This document shows positions 1,774 to 64,000 of a stretch of 64,000 nt of DNA, one piece after another (the first letter of the stretch is position 1; every line of letters starts with the position of its first letter). Source of the stretch: Pseudomonadota bacterium (GTDB lineage: Bacteria > Myxococcota_A > UBA9160 > PR03); contig QEVM01000003.1 in assembly GCA_003576805.1 (NCBI GenBank), positions 1,016 through 65,015 of the forward strand. The letters run 5' to 3'. Below the pieces are notes generated by a model. It had not been told where the DNA came from. It saw only the letters and a program-made list of their open reading frames with translations, and did no database searches. Both the position numbers and the translations under genes were made by a program.

Positions 1774-1798
1774 CGAGCGCGCGAGGGAGGGAGGTCCG

Positions 1799-3548: not shown

Positions 3549-3561
3549 CGCGCGCCGAGCA

Positions 3562-3604: not shown

Positions 3605-3821
3605 GAGCGCCTGTCGGGACGGCGTCGTCGTGGCGCCGCGGCCGTGCGCGCGCGGCGCCCCCAAGTAGCCGGTCTTCCGAGGATTCGCGCGCGGTCGCGG
3701 CGAGGCGTGCGAAGGTCTCGTCTTGGTACGGGGATTGCTCAACCGGGGAGCAGGAGCGGCGCCCCGAGGCGCGAGTCGCCGCGAGTTTCCGTTCGGCCGT
3801 TCGGAGAGGGGGAGAGCACGC

Positions 3822-4835: not shown

Positions 4836-4843
4836 GAGCGAAC

Positions 4844-6007: not shown

Positions 6008-6031
6008 CGTTTCCCGAGAGGAGCTCGCCGC

Positions 6032-7243: not shown

Positions 7244-7276
7244 GCAGGCGGCGGCGAGGTCGCAGGGGGAGGGACG

Positions 7277-8707: not shown

Positions 8708-8745
8708 GCTCGGCGACGAGGTCCGGCCCGAGCGCGAGGAACGAC

Positions 8746-9909
8746 GTGGACTTCACCCCCGACGAAGATCACGAGGCGATCGCCGACGCGGTGCGCCGCG
8801 TGTGCGCGGACTTCTCCGACGACTACTGGGCGCAGTGCGAGCGCGACCACCGCTTCCCGACCGAGTTCTACGCGCGCATGGCGGAGGGCGGCTGGCTCGG
8901 CATCGCGATCCCCGAGGAGTACGGCGGCGGCGGCCGCGGCATCGCCGAGGCGGCGATCGTGCTGAACGAGGTCGCGAAGAGCGGCGCCGCGATGAACGGC
9001 TGCTCGGCGCTGCACCTCACCATCTTCGGCCTGAACCCGGTGGTGAAGTTCGGCAGCGAGCGCCTGAAGCGCGCGTTCCTGCCGCGCGCCGCGGCGGGCG
9101 AGCTGCACGTCGCGTTCGGCGTGACCGAGCCCGACGCGGGCACCGACACCTCGCGCATCTCGACGCGCGCCGACGCCGACGGCCACGGCAACTACGTCGT
9201 CAACGGCCACAAGATCTGGACCACGAAGGCGCTCGAGTCGGAGGTCGTGCTGCTGCTCGCGCGCACCGACCCGCGGCCGGACGCGCGCTTCAAGGGCCTC
9301 TCGCTGTTCCTCGCCGATCTCGACCGCGATCACTGCACGATCCGCCCGATCCCGAAGATGGGCCGCAACGCGGTCGCCTCGTGCGAGGTCTTCTACGACG
9401 CGATGCCGGTCGAAGGCTGGCGGCTCGTCGGCAAGGAGGGGGAGGGCTTCACGCAGCTCCTCCACGGCTTCAACCCCGAGCGCATCCTGCTCGCCGCCGA
9501 GGCGATCGGCATCGGCGAGGTCGCGCTGCGGCGCGCCGTCTCGTACGCGAAGGCGCGCGAGGTGTTCGGGCGCCCGATCGGCGCCAACCAGTCGATCGCG
9601 CATCCGCTCGCGTTGGCGCACGTGCAGCTCCGCGCGGCGTGGCAGATGGTGATGCTCGCCGCCTGGCGCTACGACCGCGGCCTCGACTGCGGCGAGGCCG
9701 CCAACACGGCGAAGTACCTCGCCGCCGAGGCGAGCTGGTTCGCCGCCGACCGCGCCGTGCAGACGCTCGGCGGCATGGGCTACGCGAGCGAGCACCACGT
9801 CGAGCGCTACTTCCGCGAAGCCCGCCTCCAGCGCATCGCGCCCGTCAGCCAGGAGATGACGCTGAACTACGTCGCGCAGACGGTGCTCGGCCTGCCGCGC
9901 AGCTACTGA
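8746..9909 (+). CDS. Acyl-CoA dehydrogenase (second copy)
   Basis: 'VDFTPDEDHEAI', 'AFGVTEPDAGTDTS', 'GHKIWTTKA' and 'QTLGGMGYASEHHVERYFREARL' are ACAD motifs. GTG start after GAGGAA. Confidence 0.9.
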   Translation: MDFTPDEDHEAIADAVRRVCADFSDDYWAQCERDHRFPTEFYARMAEGGWLGIAIPEEYGGGGRGIAEAAIVLNEVAKSGAAMNGCSALHLTIFGLNPVVKFGSERLKRAFLPRAAAGELHVAFGVTEPDAGTDTSRISTRADADGHGNYVVNGHKIWTTKALESEVVLLLARTDPRPDARFKGLSLFLADLDRDHCTIRPIPKMGRNAVASCEVFYDAMPVEGWRLVGKEGEGFTQLLHGFNPERILLAAEAIGIGEVALRRAVSYAKAREVFGRPIGANQSIAHPLALAHVQLRAAWQMVMLAAWRYDRGLDCGEAANTAKYLAAEASWFAADRAVQTLGGMGYASEHHVERYFREARLQRIAPVSQEMTLNYVAQTVLGLPRSY

Positions 9910-9912
9910 GGC

Positions 9913-22170: not shown

Positions 22171-22502
22171 ATCGGGGCATTCGCGCTCGCGTCGCTCGAC
22201 GCAACGCACTCTGCGAGTCGACCGTCCCGTTGCACCTCGCGCCGCGTGCGCCCGACGTCGACCAAGTGCCTTGATGACACCGCGCGCGCCACCATCTCCG
22301 CGTCGCGGCCTTCACGGCGACCGCGGCCGCCGCGCGAACCGGCGCCGCCGGCGACGTCCGCGTCGCCGCGCTGACACCGCGCGGGCCCGGGACGACGAGC
22401 GCCCTCCTCGGCCGCGAGATGCAGCAGAAACCCGATGACAGCGCGGGCTCCGAGCGGCCACAATGGAGCGGGCGGGTTTGAGGCTGGGCGAGGGGAAGCC
22501 TC

Positions 22503-25500: not shown

Positions 25501-27155
25501 CGCCCGAGCTCGACGCGCTGCGCGTCACCTGCGATCTCGGGCCCGACGGCTTCCCGCCCGCGATCACGGCGCTCGCCGCCGCGCCGGGTCCCGACGGCAC
25601 GACCGCGCAGATCACGTGGACGACGGACGAGCCCGCCGACTCGCACGTCGACTACGGCACGAGCCCCGACGCGCTGACGGCGAGCGCTGGCGACTCCGCG
25701 CTGGTGACCGACCACGGTGTCGGGCTGTCCGAGCTCGTGCCCGGCACCACCTACTACTACCGCGCGACGTCGGCGGATGCGGCGTCGAACGCCGCCTCCG
25801 CGCCGGCCGGTCCTCCGGCCAGCTTCGTGGCGAACGCCGCGCCGGCGCAGTGCGGAGCGGACGACGCGATCGCCGACTTCGCGGCGGGCGCGCACGCGGG
25901 CACGCACGCCGCCGCGACGGCGGGCGGCGAGGTGATCCTCGCCCCGACCGAAGCGGCCGAGTTCGAGACGCCGGGCCTGCCGCCCGGATGGCAGGCGTGG
26001 GAGGGCACGTCGGGCGCGGGGACGTTCACGATCGCGAACGGGAGCGTCGTGCTCGACGCGGGCCAGGTGCGCACCGACGCGCTCTACGGCCCGGGCCGCA
26101 CGCTCGAGGCGGTCGCGACCTTCGGCGCGACCAACAACCACCACGTGGGCTTCGGCCTCGACCTCGCCTTCACGGCGCGCTGGGCGATCTTCAGCACCCG
26201 CAACTCGACGACCAACCTGTTCGCGCGCACGCACGACGGCAGCGCGGTGTCGGACGTGGACCTCGGCGCCGGCTTCCTCGGCGCGCCGCACCGCTACCGC
26301 ATCGACTGGAAGGCCGCGAGCGTCGACTTCTTCATCGACGGCGCGCTCGTGCACAGCCAGCCGGTCGCGATCGCGGGCGACATGCGTCCGATCGCGAGCG
26401 ACAGCCTGGGCGGCGCCACGCTGAGCGTCGACTGGCTGCGCATGACGCCGTACGCAGGCAGCGGGACGTTCGAGTCGCGCGTGTTCGACGCCGGCGCGCG
26501 CGCGGACTGGCTCGACGTCGCGTGGAGCGCCGACGAGCCGGTCGGCGCGAGCGTCGCGCTCTGGGCGCGCACCGGGGAGACCGCGGCGCCCGACGCCTCG
26601 TGGAGCGACTGGACGTTCGTGCCCGCCTCGGGGCAGTCGCTCGGCGCGACGGCGCGCTACGCACAGGTCCGCGCGGACCTCGCGACGTCGGACGCACTGA
26701 CGACGACGCCCGCGCTCGCGGACGTGACGCTCCAGTGCACCCTCCGGCCGGCGTGCAGCAACGGCCTCGACGACGACGGCGACGGGCTGGTGGACGCCGG
26801 CGTCGATCCGGGCTGCACCGGCGAGAGCGACCCCAGCGAGACGTCGGTGTGCAGCGACGGCGTCGACAACGACGGCGATGGGCTCGTCGACTTCCCCGCC
26901 GACCCCGGCTGCCTCGACGCGCACGCCGCGCTCGAGAACCCGCGCTGCGACGACGACCTCGACAACGACGGCGACGGCTTCATCGACTGGGACGGCGGTG
27001 CGGGCGGCGGCACGCCGGATCCGCACTGCCAGGGCGTCGGCTCGCGCAAGCGCGAGAATCCGCAGACGTGCGGGCTTGGAGCGGAGCTCGCGCTGCTGCT
27101 GCCGCTCTTCGCGCTCGGTGCGCGGCGCGCGCGGCGGAGGAGCGTCGCCGCGTAG
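22503..27155 (+). CDS. 1550-aa secreted multidomain protein: N-terminal unknown region, 2 x (FN3-like + ConA/GH16-like jelly roll + beta-sandwich), 3 Cys-bounded DxDxDGDG repeats, C-terminal TM/Arg anchor
   Basis: Signal peptide ...GASAPALA/QL. FN3-like 'VTWQTDESADSLVQYG...TTYYYRVTSSD'. 'HRYRIDW..SVDFYIDG' jelly-roll signature occurs twice. 'CSDGVDNDGDGLVDFPADPGC' repeats. Tail 'TCGLGAELALLLPLFALGARRARRR'. Confidence 0.8.
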   Translation: MLATVRALVSLVTAIVLGASAPALAQLAPEEGPGGPVLVVVDGADPFGFFYAEILRTEGLNAFAVADVSALSQPLLDAHEVVLLAQASLSAPQVQLLTDFVVAGGKLVAMRPDPQLAGLLGLGAVSGTLADGYLLVDDATAAGQGIVAETMQFHDVADLWTTAGASAIAQLYDDATTPTSSPAVTLNAVGMNGGMAAAFTYDLARSVAWTRQGNPAWAGLERDGQGAIRPWELHFSIGASAGQPHYVDVAKIHIPQADEQQRLLANLIVTMSALPMPRFWYFPSDHAAAVVMTGDQHGCCQSSVDRLTTYLSFDPPGCSVEDWECVRSTSYVYPGPGLSDAEAVAWDALGFELALHANTGCGNWSPASLAAAYSSQLAGFAAQFPSLPAPATHRLHCVVWSDWATQPAVELAHGIRLDTTYYYPGASGGSVPGSPPGPFTGSGMPMRYVELDGSMIDVYQAVTQMTDESGQSYPFTVDTLLNRATGPEEFYGAFTVNMHQDNPVSSGALAIVQSAQARGVPIVSARQMLTWLDARNASAFTGIAWNGSELAFAVDAAADARNLRGMLPFAAGGGQLTALTRGGAPVAFQRRTIKGIEYAVFDASDGNYAASYEPDTTPPAISGLAAVAHPDATAQVTWQTDESADSLVQYGTAPDALVETAAASAFVTSHAITLSALAPNTTYYYRVTSSDTADNAATAPPVGDAPASFTTPGLVCIEDATDAELAGGAGMAGVHVARSGDGELLLAPAAAAELEGDTLPDGWETAIYPGGSGATLGGGRIALDGARLNTVSLFEAGRSLEFVATFAASANQHAGFAITLQEVGWAIFSTAGAGTSLRARTHTGASAIDTDLGGAWLGAPHRYRIDWSESSVDFYIDGTLVATHAAAIPLELRPIAGDSAGAPGGYTVDWMRMTPYADAGTLLSRVIDLGAIAAWDAVSWDATTPAGTSLGVRVRTGDTPAPDASWTSFTPIAGSGGPLGGSSRYLQYAVDLGSTDPDATPELDALRVTCDLGPDGFPPAITALAAAPGPDGTTAQITWTTDEPADSHVDYGTSPDALTASAGDSALVTDHGVGLSELVPGTTYYYRATSADAASNAASAPAGPPASFVANAAPAQCGADDAIADFAAGAHAGTHAAATAGGEVILAPTEAAEFETPGLPPGWQAWEGTSGAGTFTIANGSVVLDAGQVRTDALYGPGRTLEAVATFGATNNHHVGFGLDLAFTARWAIFSTRNSTTNLFARTHDGSAVSDVDLGAGFLGAPHRYRIDWKAASVDFFIDGALVHSQPVAIAGDMRPIASDSLGGATLSVDWLRMTPYAGSGTFESRVFDAGARADWLDVAWSADEPVGASVALWARTGETAAPDASWSDWTFVPASGQSLGATARYAQVRADLATSDALTTTPALADVTLQCTLRPACSNGLDDDGDGLVDAGVDPGCTGESDPSETSVCSDGVDNDGDGLVDFPADPGCLDAHAALENPRCDDDLDNDGDGFIDWDGGAGGGTPDPHCQGVGSRKRENPQTCGLGAELALLLPLFALGARRARRRSVAA
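24348..25544 (+). repeat. Internal duplication unit 1 (about 400 codons) of the 1550-aa protein gene
   Basis: Residues ~616-1014 align with ~1015-1413. Shares a 34-nt identical core (25071-25104 = 26277-26310). Confidence 0.8.
25545..26741 (+). repeat. Internal duplication unit 2 of the 1550-aa protein gene
   Basis: Same domain order and motifs as unit 1, offset by 1206 nt (402 codons). Confidence 0.8.
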
Positions 27156-33232: not shown

Positions 33233-35299
33233 CTACTCCACGTAGCCGAGGCTGCGGAGCTGGCTCTCGGTGCTCGCCTGGATCCGGTGCGGAACGTCGC
33301 GCGCGGGGCTCGCGCCGCCGCCCTCGTAGGTCGCGATGCGTCGCGGCTCGGGGGCTCCGTCGAGCAGCTCGAGACGCGCGACGCCGTCGGCGTCGTCCGC
33401 GACCGGGAAGCCGAGCGCGGCCAACGCAGTCGGCGCGACGTCGAGGATCGAGATCTCGCGGCGCTCGCGCTGCGGGGCGATGCCCGGGCCGGCGGCGATC
33501 CAGATGCCGTCGACGCGGTGCGTTCCGAAGCCGCGACGCGGATCCGGCTGGGAGCCGTGATCGCTCAGCACGAACACCGTGACGCCGTCGCCGAGCGTCG
33601 CGAGCAGGCGCCCGAGCGCGGCGTCGGTCCAGCGGTACGCAGCGCGCACGAAGTCGCGACACTCGGCCAGCTCGGCGGCGTCGATCGGCGCGTACGCCTC
33701 GGGCGCGTGGCAGCGCCAGAATGCGTGCGACGCCCGATCCGTGATGGTGAAGACGTGCGCGAAGAGCGCCCAGTCCGGGATGCTGCGCGCCAGCTCCTGC
33801 GCCGTCGCGAGCTGCCGCTCGGCGACGTCTTCGAGATGCTCGAAGAGCGGCCGGCGCAGGTCGCGGTCTTGCGAGACGCGCCAGCCGGCGGCCTCGACCA
33901 CGTACATCGAGTCGCCCTGCACGCGCTGCAGCAGAGCGGCGTCGCTCGTGAAGGGATGCAGCGGCGCGAGCGGATCCTGGAAGATCGGGGTGCTGTAGAT
34001 CGCGCCGTCCTCGAGCGCGCGCAGGCGGAAGCGGCCCGGCACGCCCGAGAGATCCGCGGTCAGCCACGGCGACCACTCGCCGGGCGCGAGCTCCAGCGCG
34101 TGCCCCGCCGCCTCGACGCGGCGCTTGCCGTCGGCGCGCACTTCGAAGCGGACCGGGATGGCTTCGAGGCGGCTCGACAGCAGCTCGCGCCGGATCAGCG
34201 CCTCGATCGCGAAGTGGCGCAGGCGCGATCGCGGCGGCGTCTCCGCCTCCCCGATCACGACCTCGCCGGACGCGACTCCGTCGCGTGTAGGAAGCACGGC
34301 GGTCGGCACGAGCGCGCCCGGCCGATCGCGCGTCGAGAGCACGCGCCCGAGCACCTGCTGCTCCTCCATCGGCGGCGGCTTCGTGAGGCTCGGGATCGGG
34401 AAGCCCGAGACGAGCGCGCCGTGCACCTGCGACGGCGGCCAGCTTCCCGGCACGTTCACGGCGATCGCCGGCAGGCCCGCGCTGCCGACGACGTTCCAGA
34501 GCAGCGCGGCGCGCCGGTTGCCCGCGTACGCGACGTCCCAGCCCGTGATGCCGTGCTTCTCGGCGCTCTTGCCCGAGAAGATCGACGACCACGCCACGGG
34601 CGAGTAGGTCGGCTCGATCGAGCGCAGCACGCCGGCGGCCCCGCCTCCGACGAGGCGCGCGAGGTTCGGCAGCTCGCCCGCGGCGAGCATCGGGTCGATC
34701 ACCTGCCAGTCGCCGCTGTCGATTCCGATCAGGGCCACGCGCTGCGCGACGCCCGGCGCGGGCTGGACCGGCACCACGGGCGGCGCCGGAAGGATCGGCG
34801 GCTGGACGGGCGAGCCCGCGAACGCGGTCGCGACGCCGGCGGCGCAGAGCGCGCCGAGCGCGATCGTTCCGCTGCGTCCCACCGCGAGCGCGAGCGCGGC
34901 CGCGCCGAGCGCCATCGCGAGCGCGGCCGGCAGGTAGACCCAGTAGCTGCGGTCGACGAGCTCGCGCGTGACGAGCGCCGGGACGACGCCGAACACCAGC
35001 AGCGCGGCGGCGGCGAGCGTCGTGCGCGGCCGGCCGGGGCAGATCGCGCGCGCGAGCGGACCGAGGATCGCGCCCAACACGAAGCCGGCGCCGCCGTGCA
35101 GCAGTGCGACGGCGACGGCGTCGCGCGCCGCGAGCGCGTGGTCGAGGCTCCACAGGACGCCGGTGCCGAGCGAGACGAGCGCGGGGACGCTGCGTTCGAG
35201 GGCGAGCGGCGCGCGCGCGGCGTGTGCACCCGGCACGCTCGTGCGGAGCGGGAGGAACCGATCGAAGCGCGCGGCGAGGTCGGGCTCTTGCATCGTCAT
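33233..35299 (-). CDS. Membrane-anchored alkaline-phosphatase-superfamily protein (type I phosphodiesterase/nucleotide pyrophosphatase-like)
   Basis: About 5 N-terminal TMs, then 'VALIGIDSGDW...LPNLARL...PTYSPVAWSSIFSGKSAEKHGI' and 'VFVLSDHGS' metal/nucleophile motifs. Confidence 0.75.
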   Translation of the reverse strand: MTMQEPDLAARFDRFLPLRTSVPGAHAARAPLALERSVPALVSLGTGVLWSLDHALAARDAVAVALLHGGAGFVLGAILGPLARAICPGRPRTTLAAAALLVFGVVPALVTRELVDRSYWVYLPAALAMALGAAALALAVGRSGTIALGALCAAGVATAFAGSPVQPPILPAPPVVPVQPAPGVAQRVALIGIDSGDWQVIDPMLAAGELPNLARLVGGGAAGVLRSIEPTYSPVAWSSIFSGKSAEKHGITGWDVAYAGNRRAALLWNVVGSAGLPAIAVNVPGSWPPSQVHGALVSGFPIPSLTKPPPMEEQQVLGRVLSTRDRPGALVPTAVLPTRDGVASGEVVIGEAETPPRSRLRHFAIEALIRRELLSSRLEAIPVRFEVRADGKRRVEAAGHALELAPGEWSPWLTADLSGVPGRFRLRALEDGAIYSTPIFQDPLAPLHPFTSDAALLQRVQGDSMYVVEAAGWRVSQDRDLRRPLFEHLEDVAERQLATAQELARSIPDWALFAHVFTITDRASHAFWRCHAPEAYAPIDAAELAECRDFVRAAYRWTDAALGRLLATLGDGVTVFVLSDHGSQPDPRRGFGTHRVDGIWIAAGPGIAPQRERREISILDVAPTALAALGFPVADDADGVARLELLDGAPEPRRIATYEGGGASPARDVPHRIQASTESQLRSLGYVE

Positions 35300-35381
35300 C
35301 GCGATGGTTGTGCCCGAGCCGCGTCGCGACGGCGTGACGCGAACGAGGCGTTTCTTCGGCGAGGGCGAGTAGGCCTCCCGG

Positions 35382-36161
35382 CTAGCGGCCGGGTCCCCCG
35401 GCGGAACGCGGCGCGATCCAGATCTGACGCGAGCGCGCGACGATGCGGCCCCGCTCGTCGACGAGCGCGGTCGCCGCGGTGTGGCGGCGCTCGTCGCGCG
35501 CGAGCGACCAGCCGACGACGCGCAGGCGCGCGCCGGCGCGCAAGGGGCGCGTGACCGTCGCCGTCATGCGCCCGAGCAGGAGCGGTTCGCGCGGGCGGCC
35601 CAGCGTCGCGCCGAAGTAGCCCGGGCAGTCGAGCGCCGCCCACACGAAGACCGGATCGACGACGCCGCCGCGGCCGGCGAGGTCCGCGCCGGGAGTCCAG
35701 TGCGCGGCCGACACGCCGGCGCCCGGCACGTCCACGGGCAGGATCCGCAGCCCGTCGCCGTGCCCGCGCGCGGGACCGCACACGAAGCAGCCGGGAAAGG
35801 GATGGACGAAGTCGGGAGCCGGCGCGCCTTCGATGTCCGCGGCGCGCGGGATCGCGGGCGGCTCGTCGGGAGCGGCGTCCACCGCGCGCGCCTCGGCGAT
35901 CGGATTGCCGTCGGGATCGGCGAGCGCGAGCGCCGCGCCGGAGGTCTCGTCGTGGCGCGCGAAGAGCGGCACGCCGAGCGGCGCCGGCCGGCGCAGCGTG
36001 ACCTCGACGGCGCCCGCGGCCCCGAGGCGCGCCGCCAGCCAGCCCGCGACGTAGCCGCCGTTGCCGGTTCCGGGCGGCCCGCAGAACCGCGGAGCGATGA
36101 CGAGCGGAGCGGCGTCGAAGCGGGAAGCGCTCGCGCGCTCGATCGTGAGGGCGGTGGTCAT
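35382..36161 (-). CDS. Hotdog-fold (PaaI-like) thioesterase-family protein
   Basis: 'GPPGTGNGGYVAGWLA' and 'HPFPGCFVCGP' motifs seen in hotdog thioesterase-like proteins. ATG 36161 lies 5 nt after AAGGAG. Confidence 0.55.
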   Translation of the reverse strand: MTTALTIERASASRFDAAPLVIAPRFCGPPGTGNGGYVAGWLAARLGAAGAVEVTLRRPAPLGVPLFARHDETSGAALALADPDGNPIAEARAVDAAPDEPPAIPRAADIEGAPAPDFVHPFPGCFVCGPARGHGDGLRILPVDVPGAGVSAAHWTPGADLAGRGGVVDPVFVWAALDCPGYFGATLGRPREPLLLGRMTATVTRPLRAGARLRVVGWSLARDERRHTAATALVDERGRIVARSRQIWIAPRSAGGPGR

Positions 36162-54956: not shown

Positions 54957-55150
54957 ACGCGCGACGATCGCTCCCGATCGGCTCCCGCCGCCGCGAAGTG
55001 GCGCCGGGAGCCGATTCCTTTTCGGGCCCACCGGAGCGCGCGCGGTCGCTGCGCAACGGCGGCCTAGTCCGATCGGCGGAGGCGGCGAACCGGCGTCCCG
55101 CGTAGGGTGGCGATCGAGCGGAGTCGTCCGCTCGATCGGAGCCCACTGCG

Positions 55151-56989
55151 ATGCGGAACGCGCGACTGCCCTCCGTTCCTTGCCGGCGCGGCGCGGCGTC
55201 GCTGGCGCTCGTGGTGCTGGCCCTGGCGTTCGCGGCGGCGGCGGACGCGCGCACGCGCACCTTCTGCGGCGTCGTGAAGCGGAGCTGCGGCGGCCATCTC
55301 CAGCCCGTCTGCACGAGCGGCGCGGCGTGCGACGCCGGCCACAGGCAGTACTCCGGCTCGCCCTTCCCGATCACGATCAACTGCCCGTGGCCGATCGCGG
55401 ACGTCCGCGTGACCGCCGGCTGCTACGACGAGCGCCCGGACTGCGGCGACTGCAGCGCGCAGGGCCAGATCCCGTGTCCGGTCGAGGCCGAGCCCTGGTG
55501 CACGGCCGGCTGCGACGCCGGCCTCGAGCCGGATCCGATCGCGGGACTGTGTCAGGAGCCGGGCAGCTTCGAGCTGCCCAAGGCCGGCGCGAACGAGAGC
55601 TGCGCGCCGGGCCTCGTCGCGTGCGACGAGGGCCTCCAGTGCACGCTCGCGCTGCTCTGCTCGCACGAGCCGGCGCGCGAGGGCGAGACCTGCGACGTCG
55701 GCGCGCCGTGCGGCGACGGGCTCTTCTGCGCCGCCGGCGTGCCGCAGGTGTGCAAACGCGAGCGGACGGTCGGCCAGGGCTGCTCGGTGCTGAACCCGTG
55801 CGCCGACGGCCTCTCGTGCGAGGCGTGCTTCACGGAACGGTGTCGGGCGCCGTTCCAGTGCTTCCCGAACGCCAACGGCGGCATCCTCAGCGAGCAGCAG
55901 TGCCGCACGCTCTACAGCCGGGAGCTCTCCGACGCGGCCGCCGACCTCGGGCTCGCGATGACGTACGGAGCGGGCGACGGCGCGGCGCTCGGCGTCGGCG
56001 AGTCGCAGTCGATCGGCGTCGCGTACGGCGCGAACGGCGAGTACGGCTGCTGGACGAACCTGTGCGCGGGCGCCGGCGTCGTCGCGTCGTTGTCGGCTTC
56101 CGTCTCGGTCGGCTTCTACGACGACTACGCGTATCTGGACGGCGACACCTTCGCGGTCGTCGAGGAGGCGGGCGCGGTCGTCAGCTTCGCGACGTCGCAG
56201 GTGTTCCAGCTCGGCGACGACCTGCTCCCGTTCGGACCGGTGATCGGGACCGAGGACGCGCTCTCGATCGGCGTCGGCATCCCGCTCGCGGCGGGCGCGT
56301 ACGTCTGCACCGGCACGCTCGACACGCTCACCGTCGAGCCGGGCGAGAACGATCCGCCGCCCTCGCCGCTGCCCGCGCTCGAGATGATCGTGAACCCGGA
56401 CTTCGACGCGGACCTCGCCGCCTGGCAGTGCAGTGCGGGCGCGCAGTGCGCGTGGGTCGCCGACGCACCGGCGGGCTTCGGCGCGGGCCGCGTGCGCAGT
56501 CCGCTCGCGGGCGCGCAGGCGGGCCGGCTCGCGTCGAGCTGCGTCAGCGTTCAGGAAGGGCTGCCCTATCGCGGCGCCGCCTGGGCGCGCGCGACGGGCG
56601 CGCGCGACGGCGTGCTCGCGCTGCACTGGAGCACGACCGACGCGTGCGGCGACGTGGCCGCGACCGACGTGCTGGGCAGCGCGCCCGCGGACGGAACGTG
56701 GCGGCGCGTGGCGGCCGTGACGACGGCGCCCGCCGGCGCGCGCACCGTGCGGCTCGTCGCCGAGGCGCTGCGCGACGACACCGGCGCGGCGAGCGAGATG
56801 CGCATCGACGCGGCCTACGTGCCCGAGCCGCATGCGGCGCTCGCCGGGCTCGCGGCGCTCGTGTCGCTCGCGTGCGCTGGACGGCGCCGCCGCCCGGCTG
56901 GCATGATGCGCCCCGGTGAAGATGCTGGTCTGCGACGATCACGCGGTGTTCCGCATGGGCCTGCGCGCCGTGCTGCGCGCGATCGATGA
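55151..56989 (+). CDS. Cys-rich secreted protein with PEP-CTERM tag followed by a 31-codon extension
   Basis: 27 Cys in the first ~250 residues, including 3 x 'C-x5-6-C-x-[DE/G]G-L-x-C' units (55601-55843). 'VPEPHAALAGLAALVSLACAGRRRR' at 56819-56893. The frame stays open to 56989, overlapping the next gene. Confidence 0.7.
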   Translation: MRNARLPSVPCRRGAASLALVVLALAFAAAADARTRTFCGVVKRSCGGHLQPVCTSGAACDAGHRQYSGSPFPITINCPWPIADVRVTAGCYDERPDCGDCSAQGQIPCPVEAEPWCTAGCDAGLEPDPIAGLCQEPGSFELPKAGANESCAPGLVACDEGLQCTLALLCSHEPAREGETCDVGAPCGDGLFCAAGVPQVCKRERTVGQGCSVLNPCADGLSCEACFTERCRAPFQCFPNANGGILSEQQCRTLYSRELSDAAADLGLAMTYGAGDGAALGVGESQSIGVAYGANGEYGCWTNLCAGAGVVASLSASVSVGFYDDYAYLDGDTFAVVEEAGAVVSFATSQVFQLGDDLLPFGPVIGTEDALSIGVGIPLAAGAYVCTGTLDTLTVEPGENDPPPSPLPALEMIVNPDFDADLAAWQCSAGAQCAWVADAPAGFGAGRVRSPLAGAQAGRLASSCVSVQEGLPYRGAAWARATGARDGVLALHWSTTDACGDVAATDVLGSAPADGTWRRVAAVTTAPAGARTVRLVAEALRDDTGAASEMRIDAAYVPEPHAALAGLAALVSLACAGRRRRPAGMMRPGEDAGLRRSRGVPHGPARRAARDR

Positions 56990-57591: not shown

Positions 57592-60435
57592 ATGCGCCGA
57601 CCCTGGGCCGACACGCTGCTGATGGCGCTGCTGCTGCCGCTCTTCGCGGCCTGTCTGGCGCTGCACGTGCGCGAGGCGCGCCGGACCGGACTCGCGCAGC
57701 CGCCCGTGTTCGCGACCGGCCGCGGCGCCGACGCCTACCCCGTCGTCGGCGGCGTGCGGCTCGAACGCGGCGCCGACTGGTCGGGCCTCGTGCTCGGCGA
57801 TCGCCTGATCCGCGTCGGCGACACCGATCTGCGCGGCAAGGGCTACATCGGCTTCGACGCGTACGCGCTGCACGAGGCGGGCACGCGCGGCAGCGCGCCG
57901 CTCGTGATCGAACGCGACGGCGAGCGCCACGCGATGACGCTCGCGATGCAGCGCCAGCAGCTCCCCTGGTATCGCGTGCCGTTCATGCTCTCGTTCGTGC
58001 TGGTCGCGACGCTGGTGCTGCTGCGCTCGCCGGGCTCCGCGACGGCGCGCGTCCTGTTCGCGGGCTTCGTCGCGTTCGCGTGCGTCGAGACGCCCTTCTA
58101 CGGCGGGCCGCCGCTCCAGACGTACGCGTACGGGGCGCTCTTCCACGGCGTCGGTCCGCTGGCGGTCGGGCTGCTGCTCGCGTTCTTCGCGCGGCTGCCC
58201 GCGGAGGTGCCGCGCGAGCGCCGCGCATCGCCGTGGTGGGGGCTCGCCGGCGCACTCTTCGCCGTCGTGCGCATCCCGTACTTCTTCGACTGGCCGGTGC
58301 CGGCGCTCGTCGCGCCGGCGGCCGTGCTGGTCTGCGACGTCGGGTTCCTGGTGCTGGGCGTCGCGCTCGTCGGCTGGAACGTCGCGCACGCAGAGCCGAT
58401 CGGACGGCGCCGCGTGCGCTGGGTGCTGGTCGGCGCGGCGTTCGGCATCGCGCCGATGGCGGTGACGCTCTCGCTGCAGTCGCTGCTCGAGCCCGCGACG
58501 TATCACCGGCTCTTCCAGTACAGCGCGATCGGCGCGGTGTTCCTGCCGCTCGGGCTCGCCGTCTCGATCACGCGCGCGAACCTGCTCGACATCGACCGCC
58601 TGCTGTCGGCGACGACCGCCTATTCGGTGGCGGTCGGCGCCGCGGTCGCGGCGGCGCTCGCGGTCGTGCCGCCGCTCGGGCGCGCCGCCGCCGCGGCGTC
58701 GGGCCTCGATCCGCGCTCGGCGCAGACGCTCGTCGCGCTCGCCGTCGCCGCGGTCGCGGTGCCGATCGGGCGCCGGCTGCGCCCGGTCGTGGAGGGCGTC
58801 TTCTTCCCCGAACGCGCCGTCGTGGAGCGCGGCTTCCGCCAGCTCCTGCGCGATCTCTCGGAGTGCGGCGGCGCGGACGAGCTGCTCGAGCTGGCGCGCG
58901 CGCGCATCGAGTCGCTGCTCGGGCTGCGCTCGTGCGCGGTGTACGAGCCCGACGGCGACGCCTTCGCCGTGCGCGGCCGCCCCGACGCGCCGCGCTTGCG
59001 CCGCGACGGCGCGCTCGTGCGGCTGCTCGAGCGCGACTCGGTGCCCGTGCGCAGCGCGCGCGCCGCGCTCGCGGCCGGCGAGCGCGAGGCGCTCGCCGGC
59101 GCGCCGATCCTGGTGCCGGTGCGCGCCGGCAAGGACCTCGCCGCGCTGCTCGCGCTCGGCGCCAAGCGCTCGGGCGACGTCTTCCCGTCCGCCGAGCTGA
59201 CGCTGCTCGGCGCGCTCGCGGAGAAGGCGTCGGCGGAGCTCGGCCGGCTGCGCGATCGCGCGGCGCTCGCCAGCGAGCGCGAGCGCGCCGCCGCGCTGCA
59301 GCAGCTCACCGACGAGGCGCAGGCCGCCAACCGCGCCAAGTCGCGCTTCCTCGCCGCCGCGAGCCACGACCTGCGCCAGCCGCTGCACGCGCTCGGCCTC
59401 TTCGTCGACCGGCTCTCCGATCACGTCGCCGGCGACGTCGGCCGCGCGCTCGCCGAGCAGGTCCAGGCGACGACGCGCGCGCTGCGCGATCAGCTCGACG
59501 CGCTGCTCGACCTCTCGCGGCTCGACGCGGGCGGCGTCGAGCCCGACGTGCGCGCCTTCGCGATCGGTCCCGAGCTCGCGCGGCTCGCCGCCGAGACGAG
59601 CGCCGCCGCGCGCGAGAAGGGGCTCGGCTTCCGCTTCGAGCCGGCGGACGCCGTCGTCGCGAGCGATCCGATCCTGCTCGCGCGCGTCCTCCAGAACCTG
59701 CTCGCCAACGCCGTCCGCTACACGAACGCGGGCTCGGTCGCGCTGCGCGCGCGGCGCGACGGCGCGCGGCTGTGGATCGAGGTCGCGGACACGGGCCCCG
59801 GCATTCCCGCCGACCGCCAGCGCGAGATCTTCTCCGAGTTCTACCGGCTCGACCCGCGCGCGGGCGACGGCGGCCTCGGCCTCGGCCTCGCGATCGTCGA
59901 CCGCACCGCGCGCCTGCTCGGCCACGCCGTGCAGCTCGACTCCGCGCCCGGCCGCGGCTCGGTGTTCCGCGTCGCGCTCCCGCTCGCGGCGGCCGGGACC
60001 GACACGACGGAGAGTCGCGCGCCCGGCGCCGCGGCCGGCCTCGCGGGCCGCCGCGTGCTCGTGGTCGAGGACGAGCCGGCGGTGCTCGAAGCGATGCGCG
60101 GACTGCTCGAGTCCTGGGGCTGCCGCGTCACGCCCGCGCGCAGCGTCGCCGCCGCCACCGACGCGCTCTCGCCCGGCGCCGCGCCGCCCGACCTCATCAT
60201 CGCCGACTACCGCCTCGGCGACGCCGAGACCGGCATCGACGCGATCGAGCGCATCCGCCGCGCCACCGGCGTCGACGTCCCGGCCGTCCTCGTGAGCGGC
60301 GAGTCCGGCCGCGACTCGCTCGTCGCGATCCGCGCGAGCGGCCTCCGCCACCTCGCCAAGCCCGTCCCGCCCGCCCGGCTGCGCGCGCTCCTCGCCGAGC
60401 TGCTGCGCCGCCCGGGCGCCGGCGCGCCGCACTGA
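57592..60435 (+). CDS. Membrane hybrid sensor histidine kinase/response regulator
   Basis: N-terminal TM, possible PDZ-like segment and a multi-TM block. HisKA 'FLAAASHDLRQPLHAL'. HATPase 'GGLGLGLAIV'. C-terminal REC 'VLVVEDEPAV...DLIIADYRL'. Confidence 0.85.
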   Translation: MRRPWADTLLMALLLPLFAACLALHVREARRTGLAQPPVFATGRGADAYPVVGGVRLERGADWSGLVLGDRLIRVGDTDLRGKGYIGFDAYALHEAGTRGSAPLVIERDGERHAMTLAMQRQQLPWYRVPFMLSFVLVATLVLLRSPGSATARVLFAGFVAFACVETPFYGGPPLQTYAYGALFHGVGPLAVGLLLAFFARLPAEVPRERRASPWWGLAGALFAVVRIPYFFDWPVPALVAPAAVLVCDVGFLVLGVALVGWNVAHAEPIGRRRVRWVLVGAAFGIAPMAVTLSLQSLLEPATYHRLFQYSAIGAVFLPLGLAVSITRANLLDIDRLLSATTAYSVAVGAAVAAALAVVPPLGRAAAAASGLDPRSAQTLVALAVAAVAVPIGRRLRPVVEGVFFPERAVVERGFRQLLRDLSECGGADELLELARARIESLLGLRSCAVYEPDGDAFAVRGRPDAPRLRRDGALVRLLERDSVPVRSARAALAAGEREALAGAPILVPVRAGKDLAALLALGAKRSGDVFPSAELTLLGALAEKASAELGRLRDRAALASERERAAALQQLTDEAQAANRAKSRFLAAASHDLRQPLHALGLFVDRLSDHVAGDVGRALAEQVQATTRALRDQLDALLDLSRLDAGGVEPDVRAFAIGPELARLAAETSAAAREKGLGFRFEPADAVVASDPILLARVLQNLLANAVRYTNAGSVALRARRDGARLWIEVADTGPGIPADRQREIFSEFYRLDPRAGDGGLGLGLAIVDRTARLLGHAVQLDSAPGRGSVFRVALPLAAAGTDTTESRAPGAAAGLAGRRVLVVEDEPAVLEAMRGLLESWGCRVTPARSVAAATDALSPGAAPPDLIIADYRLGDAETGIDAIERIRRATGVDVPAVLVSGESGRDSLVAIRASGLRHLAKPVPPARLRALLAELLRRPGAGAPH

Positions 60436-60495
60436 GCGGGCAAGGAGAGGCGGCGCCACTCGCCGATGTCGACGTCGCGGCCGATCCGGGCTGGC

Positions 60496-62115
60496 TCAGT
60501 GCAGCTCAGCTGACACGCTCGTCACCGTACCCGCGCGACTCAATCGTCCCGCAACGCGCGAGAGGAGTCGCCTTCTGAGCTCCCGATCGGAAGCGAACAA
60601 GCGCAGGTCTTCGAATGCGATCCGTGGATCCGCCTGGTAGGCCGCCATCGCCATGCGCGCACGGCGAACCGCACGGACCCAATCACTGGCCCCCCTGGCG
60701 AGCGACGGATCGAGGCGAATACACGGGACTCCCACGTGCGCCGCCAATCGTGTGGTGACTCGGACGCCAGACTTGCTGCCCACGTCGATCAAGGCATCAC
60801 ACAGCGCGAGAGTATCGACGAGGGCCTGCCGCTCGCCTTCGGCGGAAGCACCCTGATCCGGAGGAACCGAATAGACGGCGCGGCACTCGACCCCTGCTGC
60901 CTCGAGCAGGGCTCGCAGCGGCTCGATCGAGCGCCACCCGGATCGGTCCACGATCGCCACGGACTTTCCGCGAAGCCTGCGCATGCGACGATCGGCGAGA
61001 ACGCTCGTCAACATCGACTTCACATGAATCGCGTCGAGCTCTTCCGTCGAACGGTCGAGCTCCGCCCGCAGCTCGGCAGCAACGGCATTCTTGGTTCGAG
61101 CGGAAGCAGCCAACGACTTCCGATCTCCGATGTTCTCGAGCTCGGTTGACTCATCGTCGTGGTGTAAGACGAGCTTCCACGGGTACTTGACGATCGAAGT
61201 GAGGCGACCCGGTTGGAGGAAGTAGCGATTGTCCGTGCGGAGGTATCGCTGCGAATCCTCGGCGCTCGCGGGTCCGCCCCGCACGAGGTGAGCGATGTTT
61301 CGTCCGCGGCTCTGGCTCGAAAGCTGCGCATCCGGATCGAGGCTCAGCAAGTCGACCAACGACACAGCAAGGTCGATGCTGGACACGGGGCAGTCGATTG
61401 AACGGGGGACGCAACCGGGAGATCGGATCAGCAAGGGGATTCGGATGTTCTCGCTTGACAAAACCAAGTCGTGGCCGTGGTGGTCTAGCTCAGCGCGCCA
61501 TTCGGCGATCGGGCGATCATCGGGGGGCACCGGAAATCCGTGATCCGAGCAGACCACCAGCACGCTGTTCGTAAGCACATTCCTCAGGATCCAGAGCAGC
61601 CGTTGGACCTGCGCCTCGGTTTCCTGCCCCGAGTACATGTTGAGGTGCGCGAACAAGAAGCGCGGCGACCTCGCGTCGTCTGCCAGCGTTCGCTCGATGG
61701 CGTCGATGATCTGATCGTTGCTCCAGTCCTCCCGGTAGCGGGAGCCCGACGACCAGTGTTTGCGAGGGATTGAGGGTAGGACGCTCCGGAGGCGGTCGCG
61801 CGTGTACGGATACCAAGCCGCCTGGTGCACGAGATACCCCCGCTCGGACAGGACCTGGGGCAAAGAGCGGATCTTGTCGGGATCGAAGCTGAAGTCGGCG
61901 AACGTCCGGCCGAGCTGGTAGGCGTGCATGCCGGTCATCATCGCGCTCACGGACATCAGGGTGCTCGGAGCGGACGTGAACGCGTTCGTAAAGCGCACAG
62001 AATCGGGCTCGAGCATTTTCAGGAACGGGAGCGGGTCTCTCGCGGCGTGCCGTCGGCTGGGCCGAGCGCGCATTCCATCCACGAGAATCCAAACCAGGTT
62101 CGGTCGTTCTGCCAC
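60496..62115 (-). CDS. Cytoplasmic alkaline-phosphatase-superfamily (sulfatase-fold) protein with a non-canonical active-site motif and a ~200-aa unknown C-terminal domain
   Basis: 'PNLVWILVDGMRA', 'FTSAPSTLMSVSAMMTG' (S-A-P-S-T instead of C/S-x-P-x-R), 'LVVCSDHGF'. No signal peptide. GTG 62115 lies 7 nt after AGGAGA (GTG 62184 is an alternative). Visibly lower GC. Confidence 0.7.
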   Translation of the reverse strand: MAERPNLVWILVDGMRARPSRRHAARDPLPFLKMLEPDSVRFTNAFTSAPSTLMSVSAMMTGMHAYQLGRTFADFSFDPDKIRSLPQVLSERGYLVHQAAWYPYTRDRLRSVLPSIPRKHWSSGSRYREDWSNDQIIDAIERTLADDARSPRFLFAHLNMYSGQETEAQVQRLLWILRNVLTNSVLVVCSDHGFPVPPDDRPIAEWRAELDHHGHDLVLSSENIRIPLLIRSPGCVPRSIDCPVSSIDLAVSLVDLLSLDPDAQLSSQSRGRNIAHLVRGGPASAEDSQRYLRTDNRYFLQPGRLTSIVKYPWKLVLHHDDESTELENIGDRKSLAASARTKNAVAAELRAELDRSTEELDAIHVKSMLTSVLADRRMRRLRGKSVAIVDRSGWRSIEPLRALLEAAGVECRAVYSVPPDQGASAEGERQALVDTLALCDALIDVGSKSGVRVTTRLAAHVGVPCIRLDPSLARGASDWVRAVRRARMAMAAYQADPRIAFEDLRLFASDRELRRRLLSRVAGRLSRAGTVTSVSAELH

Positions 62116-62152
62116 CGCGGCGTCTCCTGTGACTGGACTGAGCCCATGGGTC

Positions 62153-62914
62153 TCACCAGCGCCAATCGTGACTCCACAGCTCACCGGACATTCGCGACGT
62201 CAGTCGCGCGTACGAAGCGAGGTCGGTCTCCGAGTCGACCTCGCACCACCGACCCTCGATCGGCACGGCGGCGACCTGCTGACCCCGCGAGATCGCGAGT
62301 CGCAGGAGTGAAGTGATGTCGAGTCGGTCGACGTCCGCGGGTGGCAGAGTGGCGAGCGCGAGTCTAAGCGCATTCCAGCCGTTTGGCGTCAGGCGCGTCA
62401 AGCCGATGTACTGCGCCTCGACGTCTGCGTAAGAACGCGGACGAGCGCCGATGTCGGCCACGCGGCCGTTCTCGAGCCGCAACGTCTCGGCGTCGGCGAG
62501 AGGGTTCTCGAATCTTAGTGTCCAAAGCTCTCGCCAGCGCGTATCGACCGCGATCGCGATCTCGTGATCCGAGCCGAGGAGGCGAGTGATGATCTCCGGA
62601 TGGAAGGCGATATCCGAGTAAACCACGATGCACAGGCCGCGCGCCAGCAGGTCACTCGCTTGCTCGAGAGACCGCACCATGTTCGTCGACTCCCACCGCG
62701 AGTTCTCGAGCAGGAGGTGAGGGCCCGTCACGGAATCCGCGCGGTATCCGCGGACGATTGCAATCTGTTCGATGCCTGCTCTTCGCAGAGCCGCGATCTG
62801 CCAATCGAGGAGAGTTCGTCCGGCGATCTCAAGCAGACACTTGGGCGCATTCTCTGTTGCGCGCCCCATCCGGCGTCCTCGACCTGCTGCGAGTATGACG
62901 GCGTGCGGCGTCAA
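62153..62914 (-). CDS. Nucleotidyltransferase (MobA/LicC-like; candidate Cj1416-type CTP:phosphoglutamine cytidylyltransferase)
   Basis: 'AVILAAGRGRRMG....PKCLLEIAGRTLLDWQI' NTP-transferase P-loop-like signature. TTG 62914 overlaps the upstream stop (TTGA). ATG 63013 is an alternative. Confidence 0.7.
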   Translation of the reverse strand: MTPHAVILAAGRGRRMGRATENAPKCLLEIAGRTLLDWQIAALRRAGIEQIAIVRGYRADSVTGPHLLLENSRWESTNMVRSLEQASDLLARGLCIVVYSDIAFHPEIITRLLGSDHEIAIAVDTRWRELWTLRFENPLADAETLRLENGRVADIGARPRSYADVEAQYIGLTRLTPNGWNALRLALATLPPADVDRLDITSLLRLAISRGQQVAAVPIEGRWCEVDSETDLASYARLTSRMSGELWSHDWRW

Positions 62915-63576
62915 GCGTTGACCTGCCGGCGTGCCGTCCGGTCGAAGCCGAGAAAGCGCTCGAAGATTGCGAGGTCCGTGTCCCGCGCCTTCGAATACCG
63001 CTCGGGGTGCCACTGGAGCGCGAGCACACGGGGTTGCGGCGCATAGGCCGCTTCGACGATGCCGTCGTAGGCGACGAGAAGCGGCGTGAGAGGCTGAGCG
63101 ATCTGGGACGCGGCCACGCCGTTTCGGTGGTAGGAGTTCACGTTTTCCATGGCGCGAAGGATGTCGGCGAAGTCGTGGGACGCATTCGTGGGGCCGACCT
63201 CATGCGGCGTCCCGCAGTGACGGTCGGGATCGCATCGTTCGAGGGGTCCCCCGAAAATGGTTTGAATGAGCTGCAGGCCTCGGCAGATGCCTACGATCGG
63301 AACACCGCATGCAACGGCCGAATGAAAAAGCCTCTCCTCTGCCGCGTCCCGATCGGGGTCGGAGCCAAGGTCATCACCTCCCGTCAAGATCAACGCGGTA
63401 ACGGGAACCGTACGCAGGAGGCGCTCCGCCATGCGGGGCTCGTTCGGCGCCCCGAAGCACACGGCGTTGGGCGTGAGCTCCGCGAAGAAACGCCACCAGC
63501 GTCGGTCGACCGAGTCGCGCGTCTCGCCTCGCTGCACGGATCTCCTGGCGGAGACGGCGAAGATCTCAGCCGGCAT
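62911..63576 (-). CDS. Class I glutamine-amidotransferase-like / peptidase C26 hydrolase (candidate Cj1417-type gamma-glutamyl-CDP-amidate hydrolase)
   Basis: Nucleophile elbow 'VPIVGICRGLQLI' and 'LALQWHPE' His/Glu region, typical of gamma-glutamyl hydrolase (PuuD/C26) proteins. Start overlaps the upstream gene by 11 nt. Confidence 0.8.
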   Translation of the reverse strand: MPAEIFAVSARRSVQRGETRDSVDRRWWRFFAELTPNAVCFGAPNEPRMAERLLRTVPVTALILTGGDDLGSDPDRDAAEERLFHSAVACGVPIVGICRGLQLIQTIFGGPLERCDPDRHCGTPHEVGPTNASHDFADILRAMENVNSYHRNGVAASQIAQPLTPLLVAYDGIVEAAYAPQPRVLALQWHPERYSKARDTDLAIFERFLGFDRTARRQVNA

Positions 63577-64000
63577 CGAGGGGCATCAACGACTGAGTCG
63601 CGGGGGAGATCACGGCTCGGTGCGATCTCGCAATGCGCGTGAACGCGCGCTCGCCGCAGCCGATCGCAGCCGCCAGACCGTGCTCGACGCAGCGGATCGC
63701 CATGTGCGAGTTCGCGCCGCCGAACCGCGTCACCAAGCCGATCGGACCGTGGGGGAAGATCCAGTCGTAGCCAGGGTCCGCTTGTTCGATCGCCACGATC
63801 TTCCCGCAGATGTTCCCGGGGCTGTGCAGCGGCGACAACACGGCCACCTCCCCACTCACCGTCTGCGATCCGACGAAGGTCGGGGTGGCGAGATCCTCGA
63901 GGACGACATCTACGTCCGTTGCCGCGAAAATCGCGGAGGGGAGCGGTGTCGCACGCGCGACCTCGTGGAGGCGGCGGCCGGCTTGGACCAAGTCAGCCAG
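63566..64000 (-). CDS. C-terminal part of a PEP-utilising-enzyme (phosphohistidine swivel domain) protein; candidate Cj1418-type L-glutamine kinase (5' part outside window)
   Basis: 'GKIVAIEQADPGYDWIF..GPIGLVTRFGGANSHMAIRCVEHGLAAAIGCG' is the PEP-utilisers mobile-domain signature with its catalytic His. The frame is open to the window edge. Confidence 0.75.
   Translation of the reverse strand: MADLVQAGRRLHEVARATPLPSAIFAATDVDVVLEDLATPTFVGSQTVSGEVAVLSPLHSPGNICGKIVAIEQADPGYDWIFPHGPIGLVTRFGGANSHMAIRCVEHGLAAAIGCGERAFTRIARSHRAVISPATQSLMPLDAG

Follow-up and report, generated by a model that had tools for sequence, protein, structure and literature searches.

The subject of this study is a set of four genes on the minus strand at the end of a 64,000-nt stretch of DNA (hereafter the window; contig QEVM01000003.1) from the metagenome-assembled genome (MAG) of a Pseudomonadota bacterium. 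In transcription order these genes encode a glutamine-kinase-type protein, a class-I amidotransferase and a nucleotidyltransferase, to which we refer together as the trio, and then a sulfatase-fold protein. We propose, with a probability of roughly 0.6, that this self-contained four-gene operon makes CDP-amidate (cytidine diphosphoramidate) and that the sulfatase-fold enzyme consumes it directly. The unusual part of the operon is its fourth gene. An initial annotation of the window had already called the fourth enzyme different from its Campylobacter counterpart, and we found that a sulfatase-fold protein indeed takes the place of the adenosine 5′-phosphosulfate (APS) kinase.

Organization of the operon and its island

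The kinase gene is represented in the window by its 3′ part (63566-64000, the last 144 codons) and has no stop up to base 64000, so the gene exits the window. It is followed by the amidotransferase gene (62911-63576, 221 aa), the nucleotidyltransferase gene (62153-62914, 253 aa from a TTG start), and the sulfatase-fold gene (60496-62115, 539 aa when started at GTG; the frame stays open up to another GTG at 62184, which would give 562 aa), all on the minus strand. The initial annotation had described tight coupling of four minus-strand genes by an 11-nt overlap, a TTGA overlap, and a 37-nt gap, and both coordinates and junctions proved exact to the nucleotide. The 11-nt overlap (63566-63576) joins the kinase stop to the amidotransferase ATG; the amidotransferase stop and the nucleotidyltransferase start share the four bases TTGA (62914-62911); and the nucleotidyltransferase gene is separated from the sulfatase-fold gene by a 37-nt spacer (62116-62152), both of these last junctions being read from the sequence. 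A GGAG Shine-Dalgarno site (62124-62127) is present 8 nt ahead of the GTG at 62115. The families originally assigned to all four genes agree with the Pfam calls, which in transcription order were PEP-utilizers, Peptidase_C26/GATase, NTP_transf_3, and Sulfatase (the last with a weak Phosphodiest match in addition), and each of the motifs listed at that time (GGANSH, GICRGLQL, QWHPE, and PKCLL) was located in its gene.

The same four-gene set, in matching order and with 47-59% protein identity, was found on an unrelated contig, L011 (GC 0.61), where the junctions overlap by 11, 8, and 4 nt. Because the set recurs in this unrelated DNA with its order kept and its junctions overlapping, we concluded that the arrangement is not due to chance. 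Alignment with L011 also favoured the longer starts, GTG 62115 for the fourth gene and TTG 62914 for the nucleotidyltransferase gene. Publicly available gene calls cut off conserved N-terminal residues of both proteins (62065-62115 and 62864-62914). The NCBI version of the fourth protein is 525 aa long and begins at Met15, by which the conserved Asp13 is lost; the nucleotidyltransferase call in Logan is 238 aa long and begins at Met16, inside the LAAGRGRRMG nucleotide-binding loop.

The four genes lie in a low-GC island, which occupies 60496-64000 of the window and, in full, ~5.5 kb (4094-9596) of the Logan contig L015; this contig is identical to the window from 59367 to 64000 (4634 nt) and runs 6091 nt beyond it. 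The GC content of the island is 0.63-0.66, and that on either side is 0.74-0.78. Since this drop in GC matches the four genes exactly, we conclude that the 5.5-kb operon was horizontally acquired. Taken together, the overlapping or short junctions, the coincidence of the island with the genes, and the recurrence in L011 led us to conclude that the four genes act as one unit. An NCBI protein with the locus tag DCC71_00945 matches the fourth protein at 100% identity. No promoter-like site was found at the island, and the two terminator-like sites there were no more than expected by chance; the repeats around the island were short, of low identity, and did not delimit it, and no Rfam family was matched.

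Upstream of the kinase gene L015 carries two open reading frames (ORFs) without a Pfam match, a cytochrome c gene, a gene for a small membrane protein, and a COX1-like gene, and the other 60 kb of the window contains mixed metabolic, regulatory, and secreted-protein genes. Pfam scans of the ORFs in the 64-kb window detected no glycosyltransferase, Wzy, Kps, or TagF genes; as had been noted initially, there is no obvious capsule locus in the window, and we found none in the 60 kb on one side of the operon or the 4 kb on the other. The sole methyltransferase in the window, a PF00891 O-methyltransferase, is encoded 57 kb from the operon. When the window was searched by tblastn with three APS-kinase queries there was no match, and the APS_kinase Pfam model matched neither the scanned window ORFs nor the 4 kb of L015 upstream of the kinase gene.

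The probable donor-making trio and its distribution

The full-length kinase, P0132 (810 aa), was recovered from L015 4094-6526, with 1998 nt of its gene lying past base 64000; the fragment in the window corresponds to residues 667-810 of P0132 with 100% identity. ATP-grasp/PPDK-like N-terminal domains, which according to the initial annotation should be sought beyond base 64000, are present there, as P0132 consists of an N-terminal PPDK_N ATP-grasp domain (PF01326) and a C-terminal PEP-utilizer phosphohistidine swivel domain (PF00391). The protein is very unlikely to be an ordinary phosphoenolpyruvate (PEP) synthase or pyruvate, phosphate dikinase (PPDK), the identity that had been named as the one to exclude: with the NCBIfam model NF004508/PRK05849 it scored 701.2 bits (curated cutoff 501), residues 26-806 aligning with profile positions 7-787 of 789, whereas the PEP synthase models, with cutoffs near 600, gave 35.7 bits. 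From end to end, P0132 shares 41% identity with proteins called ‘glutamine kinase’ by JGI. We take NF004508 to be the model for the Campylobacter jejuni kinase Cj1418, and the JGI naming of the homologues agrees with this. The GGANSH motif (63704-63721) contains the predicted phosphohistidine, His765, and none of the residues G760, G761, N763, S764, and H765 varies among 10 family members.

At least 120 full-length clusters of this kinase family, at 38-55% identity, are present in the protein collection. One homologue (L008-L010, ~8120-10423), 38-46% identical to P0132, is encoded in a NeuB/DegT cluster of the nonulosonic-acid sugar type with neither an amidotransferase nor a trio-type nucleotidyltransferase gene nearby, and therefore some members of the family may act outside the trio. 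Another, encoded at 8323-11421 of L028 (the conjugative Rhodobacterales plasmid NZ_CP049039), is 1032 aa long, of which ~230 N-terminal residues form an extension without a Pfam match.

The amidotransferase (PF07722 and PF00117, class-I amidotransferase / peptidase C26) contains the Cys motif GICRGLQL (63268-63291) and the His-x-Glu motif QWHPE (63001-63015). Its top NCBIfam family was NF045546, ‘gamma-glutamyl-CDP-amidate hydrolase’, with 52.6 bits against an equivalog cutoff of 250 bits, which it does not pass, and with a lead of ~13 bits over the next family (39.2 bits); by profile alone, assignment of the protein to this hydrolase family would be weak. In the comparison with generic homologs that the initial annotation had called for, the kinase scored far higher with NF004508 than with PEP synthase models, and the amidotransferase was closer to NF045546 than to PuuD, GuaA, or TrpG while staying under the family cutoff. 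Other trio-linked amidotransferases, to which it is 35-47% identical, are also under that cutoff (90-102 bits), and the amidotransferase gene is placed between the kinase and nucleotidyltransferase genes both here and in 8 other loci. Searches for exact-sequence matches to the amidotransferase and to the 525-aa NCBI version of the fourth protein found none, and a scan of genome contigs with the amidotransferase yielded only generic relatives of 29-33% identity.

The nucleotidyltransferase is a MobA/LicC-type protein of COG1213 (PF12804) with a G-x-G-R-G-x-R loop (LAAGRGRRMG, 62864-62893), the lysine of PKCLL (62831-62845), and a C-terminal WSHDWRW (62156-62176), the first six residues of which (WSHDWR) are common to trio-linked relatives. 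It is 42-59% identical over its full length (E 1e-68 to 1e-107) to those nucleotidyltransferases whose genes come after a corresponding kinase-amidotransferase pair in other loci; with an unrelated neighbour nucleotidyltransferase, identity was 34% and limited to the N-terminal half. NCBIfam searches returned no model specific for Cj1416, the Campylobacter cytidylyltransferase.

For the neighbourhoods of the trio we inspected 11 independent loci. The gene order kinase-amidotransferase-nucleotidyltransferase, which we take to be the transcription order in Campylobacter, was found in L011, L007, L022, L024, L025, L026, L027, and L028, among which L024 is from Pseudomonas chlororaphis (CP027718), L027 (CP026658) and L028 are plasmids, and L022, L025, and L026 are MAG loci. 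Six other loci have an APS-kinase-like gene with the trio, right after the nucleotidyltransferase gene in L025 and L026, at another position of the cluster in L022, L024, and L027, and fused to the kinase gene in L007; this is presumably the family of the Campylobacter protein Cj1415, whose gene we assume to lie right after that of the nucleotidyltransferase in Campylobacter. Methyltransferase and TagF-like (Glyphos_transf) genes are frequent neighbours as well. The kinase was also found on 14 plasmids, from Azospirillum, Vibrio, Cupriavidus, Agrobacterium, and others. Two IMG/VR contigs from Nucleocytoviricota MAGs (L029 6660-10445, GC 0.23, and L030 6690-10163, GC 0.34) have the genes in the order amidotransferase, nucleotidyltransferase, kinase, and encode proteins 24-36% identical to those of the window; because all three genes of the trio are on these contigs, giant viruses may also make a phosphoramidate donor. 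A similar cluster is known from Borg elements (bioRxiv 10.1101/2024.11.05.622173). The combination, originally described as rare and mechanistically specific, is instead common in bacteria, plasmids, and giant-virus MAGs; its mechanistic specificity stands.

Two of these clusters have further peculiarities. At 7977-10531 of L007 (ENA ERZ25039478 contig_44458) the kinase homologue carries the APS-kinase domain as an N-terminal fusion and several genes appear to be split by frameshifts, in the company of GT4, GDSL, methyltransferase, SxtJ, and carbamoyltransferase genes. L024 (5120-11788) and L025 (9001-15896) share a seven-gene set, rearranged in order between them, that encodes the kinase, the amidotransferase, the nucleotidyltransferase, an APS-kinase, a protein without a Pfam match, a formyltransferase-like protein, and a TagF-like Glyphos_transf protein, which hints at a further modified product, possibly formylated or otherwise tailored, in these organisms.

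From family membership and from the synteny shared with the Campylobacter pathway, we consider it quite likely that the operon makes cytidine diphosphoramidate by way of glutamine phosphate and CDP-glutamine. The kinase would convert L-glutamine to L-glutamine phosphate, the COG1213 nucleotidyltransferase would use this and CTP to produce CDP-L-glutamine, and the amidotransferase-fold hydrolase, with its predicted Cys-His-Glu residues, would strip off glutamate to leave CDP-amidate. The original suggestion that the synteny pointed to a phosphorus-nitrogen (P-N) donor pathway is supported by the family score of the kinase, the best family of the amidotransferase, the orthology of the nucleotidyltransferase, and the order of the trio.

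The sulfatase-fold protein and its possible roles

The fourth protein begins with a sulfatase-fold catalytic core (residues 1-374; 60994-62115; PF00884), which includes the sequences APSTLMS with Thr52 (61951-61971) and CSDHGFP with Asp191-His192 (61531-61551), as well as Asp13, His215, and Lys314. The remainder (residues 375-539 and the stop; 60496-60993) is a clade-specific C-terminal extension. In an AlphaFold model from a 69-sequence alignment (pLDDT 91, pTM 0.90), which replaced an earlier 3-sequence model with a pLDDT of 59, the protein was folded into a sulfatase-type core, a long helix, a Rossmann-like alpha/beta domain (385-470, with strands at 385-391, 410-416, 441-446, and 465-468), and a helical tail. 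The C-terminal domain had no PDB match and no significant Pfam match (best E 0.024, below the cutoff). Foldseek matched the model to S1 sulfatases (E 1e-19, target-normalised TM ~0.6), YejM/PbgA, choline sulfatase, sulfamidase, and phosphonate monoester hydrolase. By sequence the protein was also nearer to the sulfatases, and LtaS chains were among its sequence-profile matches.

When the protein was aligned by profile to PDB sulfatases, Thr52 fell on the formylglycine Cys and Val56 on the motif Arg. The formylglycine motif C/S-x-P/A-x-R was absent from all 148 clade members examined for it, and those clade members that were matched by pattern all read A-P-S-[T/S]-x-M-S. Across the 69 sequences D191, H192, G193, H215, and K314 are invariant and D13 and R16 nearly so; D13, T52, D191-H192, and H215 are conserved, and the predicted nucleophile is a Thr. 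Neither a signal peptide nor a transmembrane segment was found in the clade members checked, the maximum Kyte-Doolittle average over 19 residues was 1.36, and the catalytic strand begins ~6 residues after GTG 62115; the fourth protein is accordingly predicted to be cytoplasmic.

When 1.84 billion cluster representatives were searched with the fourth protein, its closest relative apart from itself shared only 29-37% identity, and the matching representatives numbered 81 up to an E of 1e-30 and 197 up to 1e-10. A sulfatase-fold clade member after the trio nucleotidyltransferase was found only in the window and in L011. The other independent contexts of the clade were all glycan-type clusters (5/5). 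In L017 the clade member follows two GT4 genes, Wzy_C, and NTP_transf_3 and precedes another GT4; in L012-14 it follows CTP_transf_like and a major facilitator superfamily gene; in L018 it follows a fragment of a thiamine pyrophosphate (TPP) enzyme gene and LicD; in L019/L020 it is found between DegT, GT2, GT4, and methyltransferase genes and PMT_2, Wzy, and UDP-glucose dehydrogenase genes; and in L031 it follows a PEP mutase-nucleotidyltransferase fusion, a TPP enzyme, an iron-containing alcohol dehydrogenase, and a nucleotidyltransferase, and precedes a methyltransferase and NeuB. When the window and L011 are counted, a nucleotidyl- or cytidylyltransferase gene is directly upstream of the clade member or one gene off in five of the seven contexts, and in two contexts, L031 and L018, phosphonate-pathway genes are beside it.

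L031 is a phosphonate-glycan cluster. In this locus (190-6578 of Logan SRR18502801_13119) P0251, the best non-self relative of the fourth protein, is encoded right after the nucleotidyltransferase. A TPP decarboxylase gene is present, and LicD is missing from the genes called on the contig, a gap that the sulfatase-fold protein may fill as the transferase of L031. Sulfatase genes have been seen in phosphonate clusters before, with no function assigned (PMC8942020). The sulfatase encoded after the nucleotidyltransferase of the L007 trio is a distant, different member of the family that aligns with the clade in its C-terminal half only, and gives weak support at best.

The Campylobacter protein Cj1415 phosphorylates cytidine diphosphoramidate at the 3′ position. 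Because a predicted cytoplasmic enzyme with a putative Thr nucleophile stands in the position of this 3′-kinase in a self-contained island, direct use of CDP-amidate seems to us the most plausible function for the fourth protein. We infer, tentatively and at somewhat less than even odds, that the enzyme uses the CDP-activated phosphoramidate directly, forming a covalent intermediate from which the P-N group would be handed on to an acceptor. Thr52 would be joined covalently to phosphorus with release of CMP, and the phosphoramidate group would then be moved to a hydroxyl of a cytoplasmic acceptor, for example a sugar nucleotide or a lipid-linked glycan, so that 3′-phospho activation would be bypassed. 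As no methyltransferase is encoded nearby, the product would probably be an unmethylated P-N decoration. The broader proposal that the protein founds a new class within the alkaline-phosphatase superfamily, made up of cytoplasmic transferases that act on nucleotide-activated head groups (phosphoramidate here, phosphonates in L031-like relatives) through a Thr/Ser-phosphorus intermediate, is more speculative, and we regard it as rather doubtful.

The principal alternative retains synthesis of CDP-amidate by the trio and makes the sulfatase-fold protein a hydrolase, which either splits CDP-amidate to CMP and phosphoramidate in the manner of NPP or removes or recycles P-N groups as a phosphoamidase or editing enzyme. 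The enzyme could be a hydrolase, as are its closest structural relatives (S1 sulfatases, choline sulfatase, sulfamidase, and phosphonate monoester hydrolase), and the weak Phosphodiest match is in line with this. Moreover, LicD, a transferase, already adjoins the clade member in L018, so the clade need not be one of transferases, and the TagF-like proteins are the more obvious transferase candidates in L007, L024, L025, and L028. Hydrolysis of CDP-amidate would, however, be a futile cycle that burns ATP and CTP in a self-contained island unless free phosphoramidate were the goal; the recurrence of the clade in glycan-assembly clusters directly after nucleotidyltransferases and the additional, conserved C-terminal domain, a hint of a second substrate, also argue against a hydrolase, and we consider this alternative unlikely. 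Besides the points just given in favour of a hydrolase, several others weigh against direct consumption of CDP-amidate by a self-contained operon. No glycan cluster was found in the 60 kb to one side of the operon or the 4 kb to the other, neither an acceptor nor a methyltransferase was found close by, and other parts of the incomplete MAG could still encode an APS-kinase or a TagF-like transferase. The connection to Cj1416-1418 was made through curated models, database names, synteny, and pathway summaries (PMC11800397, PMC6429109) rather than by alignment to the Campylobacter proteins, and the PDB had no entry for Cj1416-1418-type proteins and no structure of a close relative. The score of the amidotransferase is that of a protein under its family cutoff, with a small lead. 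NF004508 itself bears no title other than ‘hypothetical protein’, and we connect it to Cj1418 through the JGI names.

The nucleotidyltransferase enters into another explanation, namely that the same three families make some other CDP-activated head group, the kinase or the nucleotidyltransferase having a different substrate, or that CDP-glutamine is itself the donor, and that the sulfatase-fold enzyme transfers it. COG1213 nucleotidyltransferases are promiscuous for substrate and Cj1416 is promiscuous in vitro (PMC12275187), which also counts against our proposal; furthermore, the window proteins are only ~40% identical to other members of their families, the amidotransferase is far under the equivalog cutoff, and kinase homologues lacking amidotransferase and nucleotidyltransferase partners are present in the NeuB-type cluster of L008-L010. 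Against this, the three families occur together in the canonical order with their catalytic motifs intact, and the kinase passes its curated family cutoff from end to end, which makes a different head group quite improbable. The names in the databases would also allow a reading in which a PEP synthase or PPDK, a PuuD-type hydrolase, a LicC-type cytidylyltransferase, and a true sulfatase are chance neighbours in ordinary metabolism, as NCBI calls the kinase ‘pyruvate, phosphate dikinase’ and Pfam calls the last gene Sulfatase. This reading is contradicted by the preference of the kinase for NF004508 over PEP synthase, by the four-gene order in L011 and the single low-GC island, and by the fourth protein itself, with Thr52 and Val56 in place of the Cys and Arg of the formylglycine motif and with no signal peptide; we give it almost no credence. 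We therefore retain, as the best account of the operon, the making of CDP-amidate by the trio and its direct consumption by the sulfatase-fold enzyme.

Neighbouring genes, significance, and comparison with known systems

A LuxR regulator and hybrid histidine-kinase gene pair abuts the island, and just ahead of it, at 55106-56989 on the plus strand, there is a gene for a Cys-rich, secreted-looking 627-aa protein with no Pfam match. The possibility that free phosphoramidate feeds this histidine-kinase/LuxR pair was rejected as unsupported, because the two genes are outside the GC island and convergent. A reading of the region as a defence system was also dropped, as PADLOC gave no match. Farther away, the window encodes a 1557-aa protein with purple-acid-phosphatase N-terminal and GH16-like segments (22482-27155, plus strand) and, next to a DUF3455 gene and an alpha/beta hydrolase gene, a 776-aa protein of the alkaline-phosphatase superfamily that is unrelated to the fourth protein (33233-35563, minus strand; Pfam Phosphodiest/NPP, E 7e-21).

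According to a 2019 review, phosphoramidate decorations of sugars had been identified so far only in Campylobacter (PMC6429109). We found the putative donor-making trio to be common not only among environmental and plant-associated bacteria but also on plasmids and in giant-virus MAGs, and because it is so widespread, P-N chemistry on cell surfaces or metabolites is probably far wider than has been documented. The version in the window is rare and compact, being represented by one 50%-identity cluster among the 1.84 billion representatives. If the fourth enzyme does use CDP-linked phosphoramidate, this would be new transferase chemistry and would offer a candidate function for the ~80-200 ‘sulfatase’ clusters found beside nucleotidyltransferases in glycan and phosphonate gene clusters. 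If the protein does found a new class of transferases, the operon would be a minimal route to P-N decoration without 3′-phospho activation, and phosphoramidate modifications would be widespread outside Campylobacter.

The O-methyl phosphoramidate (MeOPN) donor pathway of C. jejuni, Cj1418-Cj1417-Cj1416-Cj1415, converts glutamine, ATP, and CTP to 3′-phospho-cytidine diphosphoramidate (PMC11800397, PMC6429109). The operon described here matches it in three enzyme families and in their order (kinase, amidotransferase-fold hydrolase, and cytidylyltransferase), and the catalytic motifs are intact. In contrast to the Campylobacter locus, the window and a further 6 kb lack a Cj1415 APS-kinase, methyltransferases of the Cj1419/1420 type, a transferase of the Cj1421/1422 or TagF-like type, and a capsule or glycan locus; there is a sulfatase-fold gene in fourth position, and the whole is a low-GC island in a GC-rich environmental proteobacterial MAG. 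The uncharacterised trio-plus-APS-kinase clusters (L022, L024-L027) have identical gene order and identities of 38-44% for the kinase, 34-40% for the amidotransferase, and 42-53% for the nucleotidyltransferase, but they differ from the window in having an APS-kinase-like gene, usually methyltransferases and/or a TagF-like CDP-alcohol phosphotransferase, and a glycan-cluster setting; none contains a member of the sulfatase-fold clade.

There is also a likeness to systems in which a nucleotidyltransferase activates an unusual phosphorus head group that the product of a neighbouring gene is expected to transfer. PntC cytidylyltransferases convert 2-aminoethylphosphonate (AEP) to CMP-AEP and have LicD-like phosphotransferases encoded nearby (PMC6697681), and the TagF-like FtaD moves phospho-N-methylthreonine from CDP-N-methylthreonine (bioRxiv 10.64898/2026.02.12.704994). 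The transferases of these systems have LicD or TagF folds, whereas the candidate in the window has a sulfatase fold. The fourth protein has the alkaline-phosphatase fold of LtaS, EptA/MCR-1, and NPP; its Thr52, replaced by Ser in some clade members, lies at the predicted nucleophile position, and its Asp...Thr...Asp-His pattern may correspond to their metal ligands. LtaS and EptA, however, are anchored in the membrane, face the periplasm or exterior, and use lipid donors, whereas members of the fourth-protein clade have no signal peptide or transmembrane segment, are nearest to S1 sulfatases by sequence, and carry the extra C-terminal alpha/beta domain. The formylglycine S1 sulfatases provide the best profile and Foldseek matches and share the DHG region and an SGSH_C-like subdomain; the fourth protein differs from them in lacking C/S-x-P/A-x-R, in having Gly for the second N-terminal Asp, in its predicted cytoplasmic location, and in a gene context that points to nucleotide-activated phosphorus head groups rather than to sulfated substrates. 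To our knowledge, no sulfatase-fold transferase for nucleotide-activated donors has been described and no member of the clade has been characterised. The chemistry of the trio belongs to a known, if little explored, kind, and the trio is widely distributed; the sulfatase-fold partner in the place of the APS-kinase and the isolated island are new.

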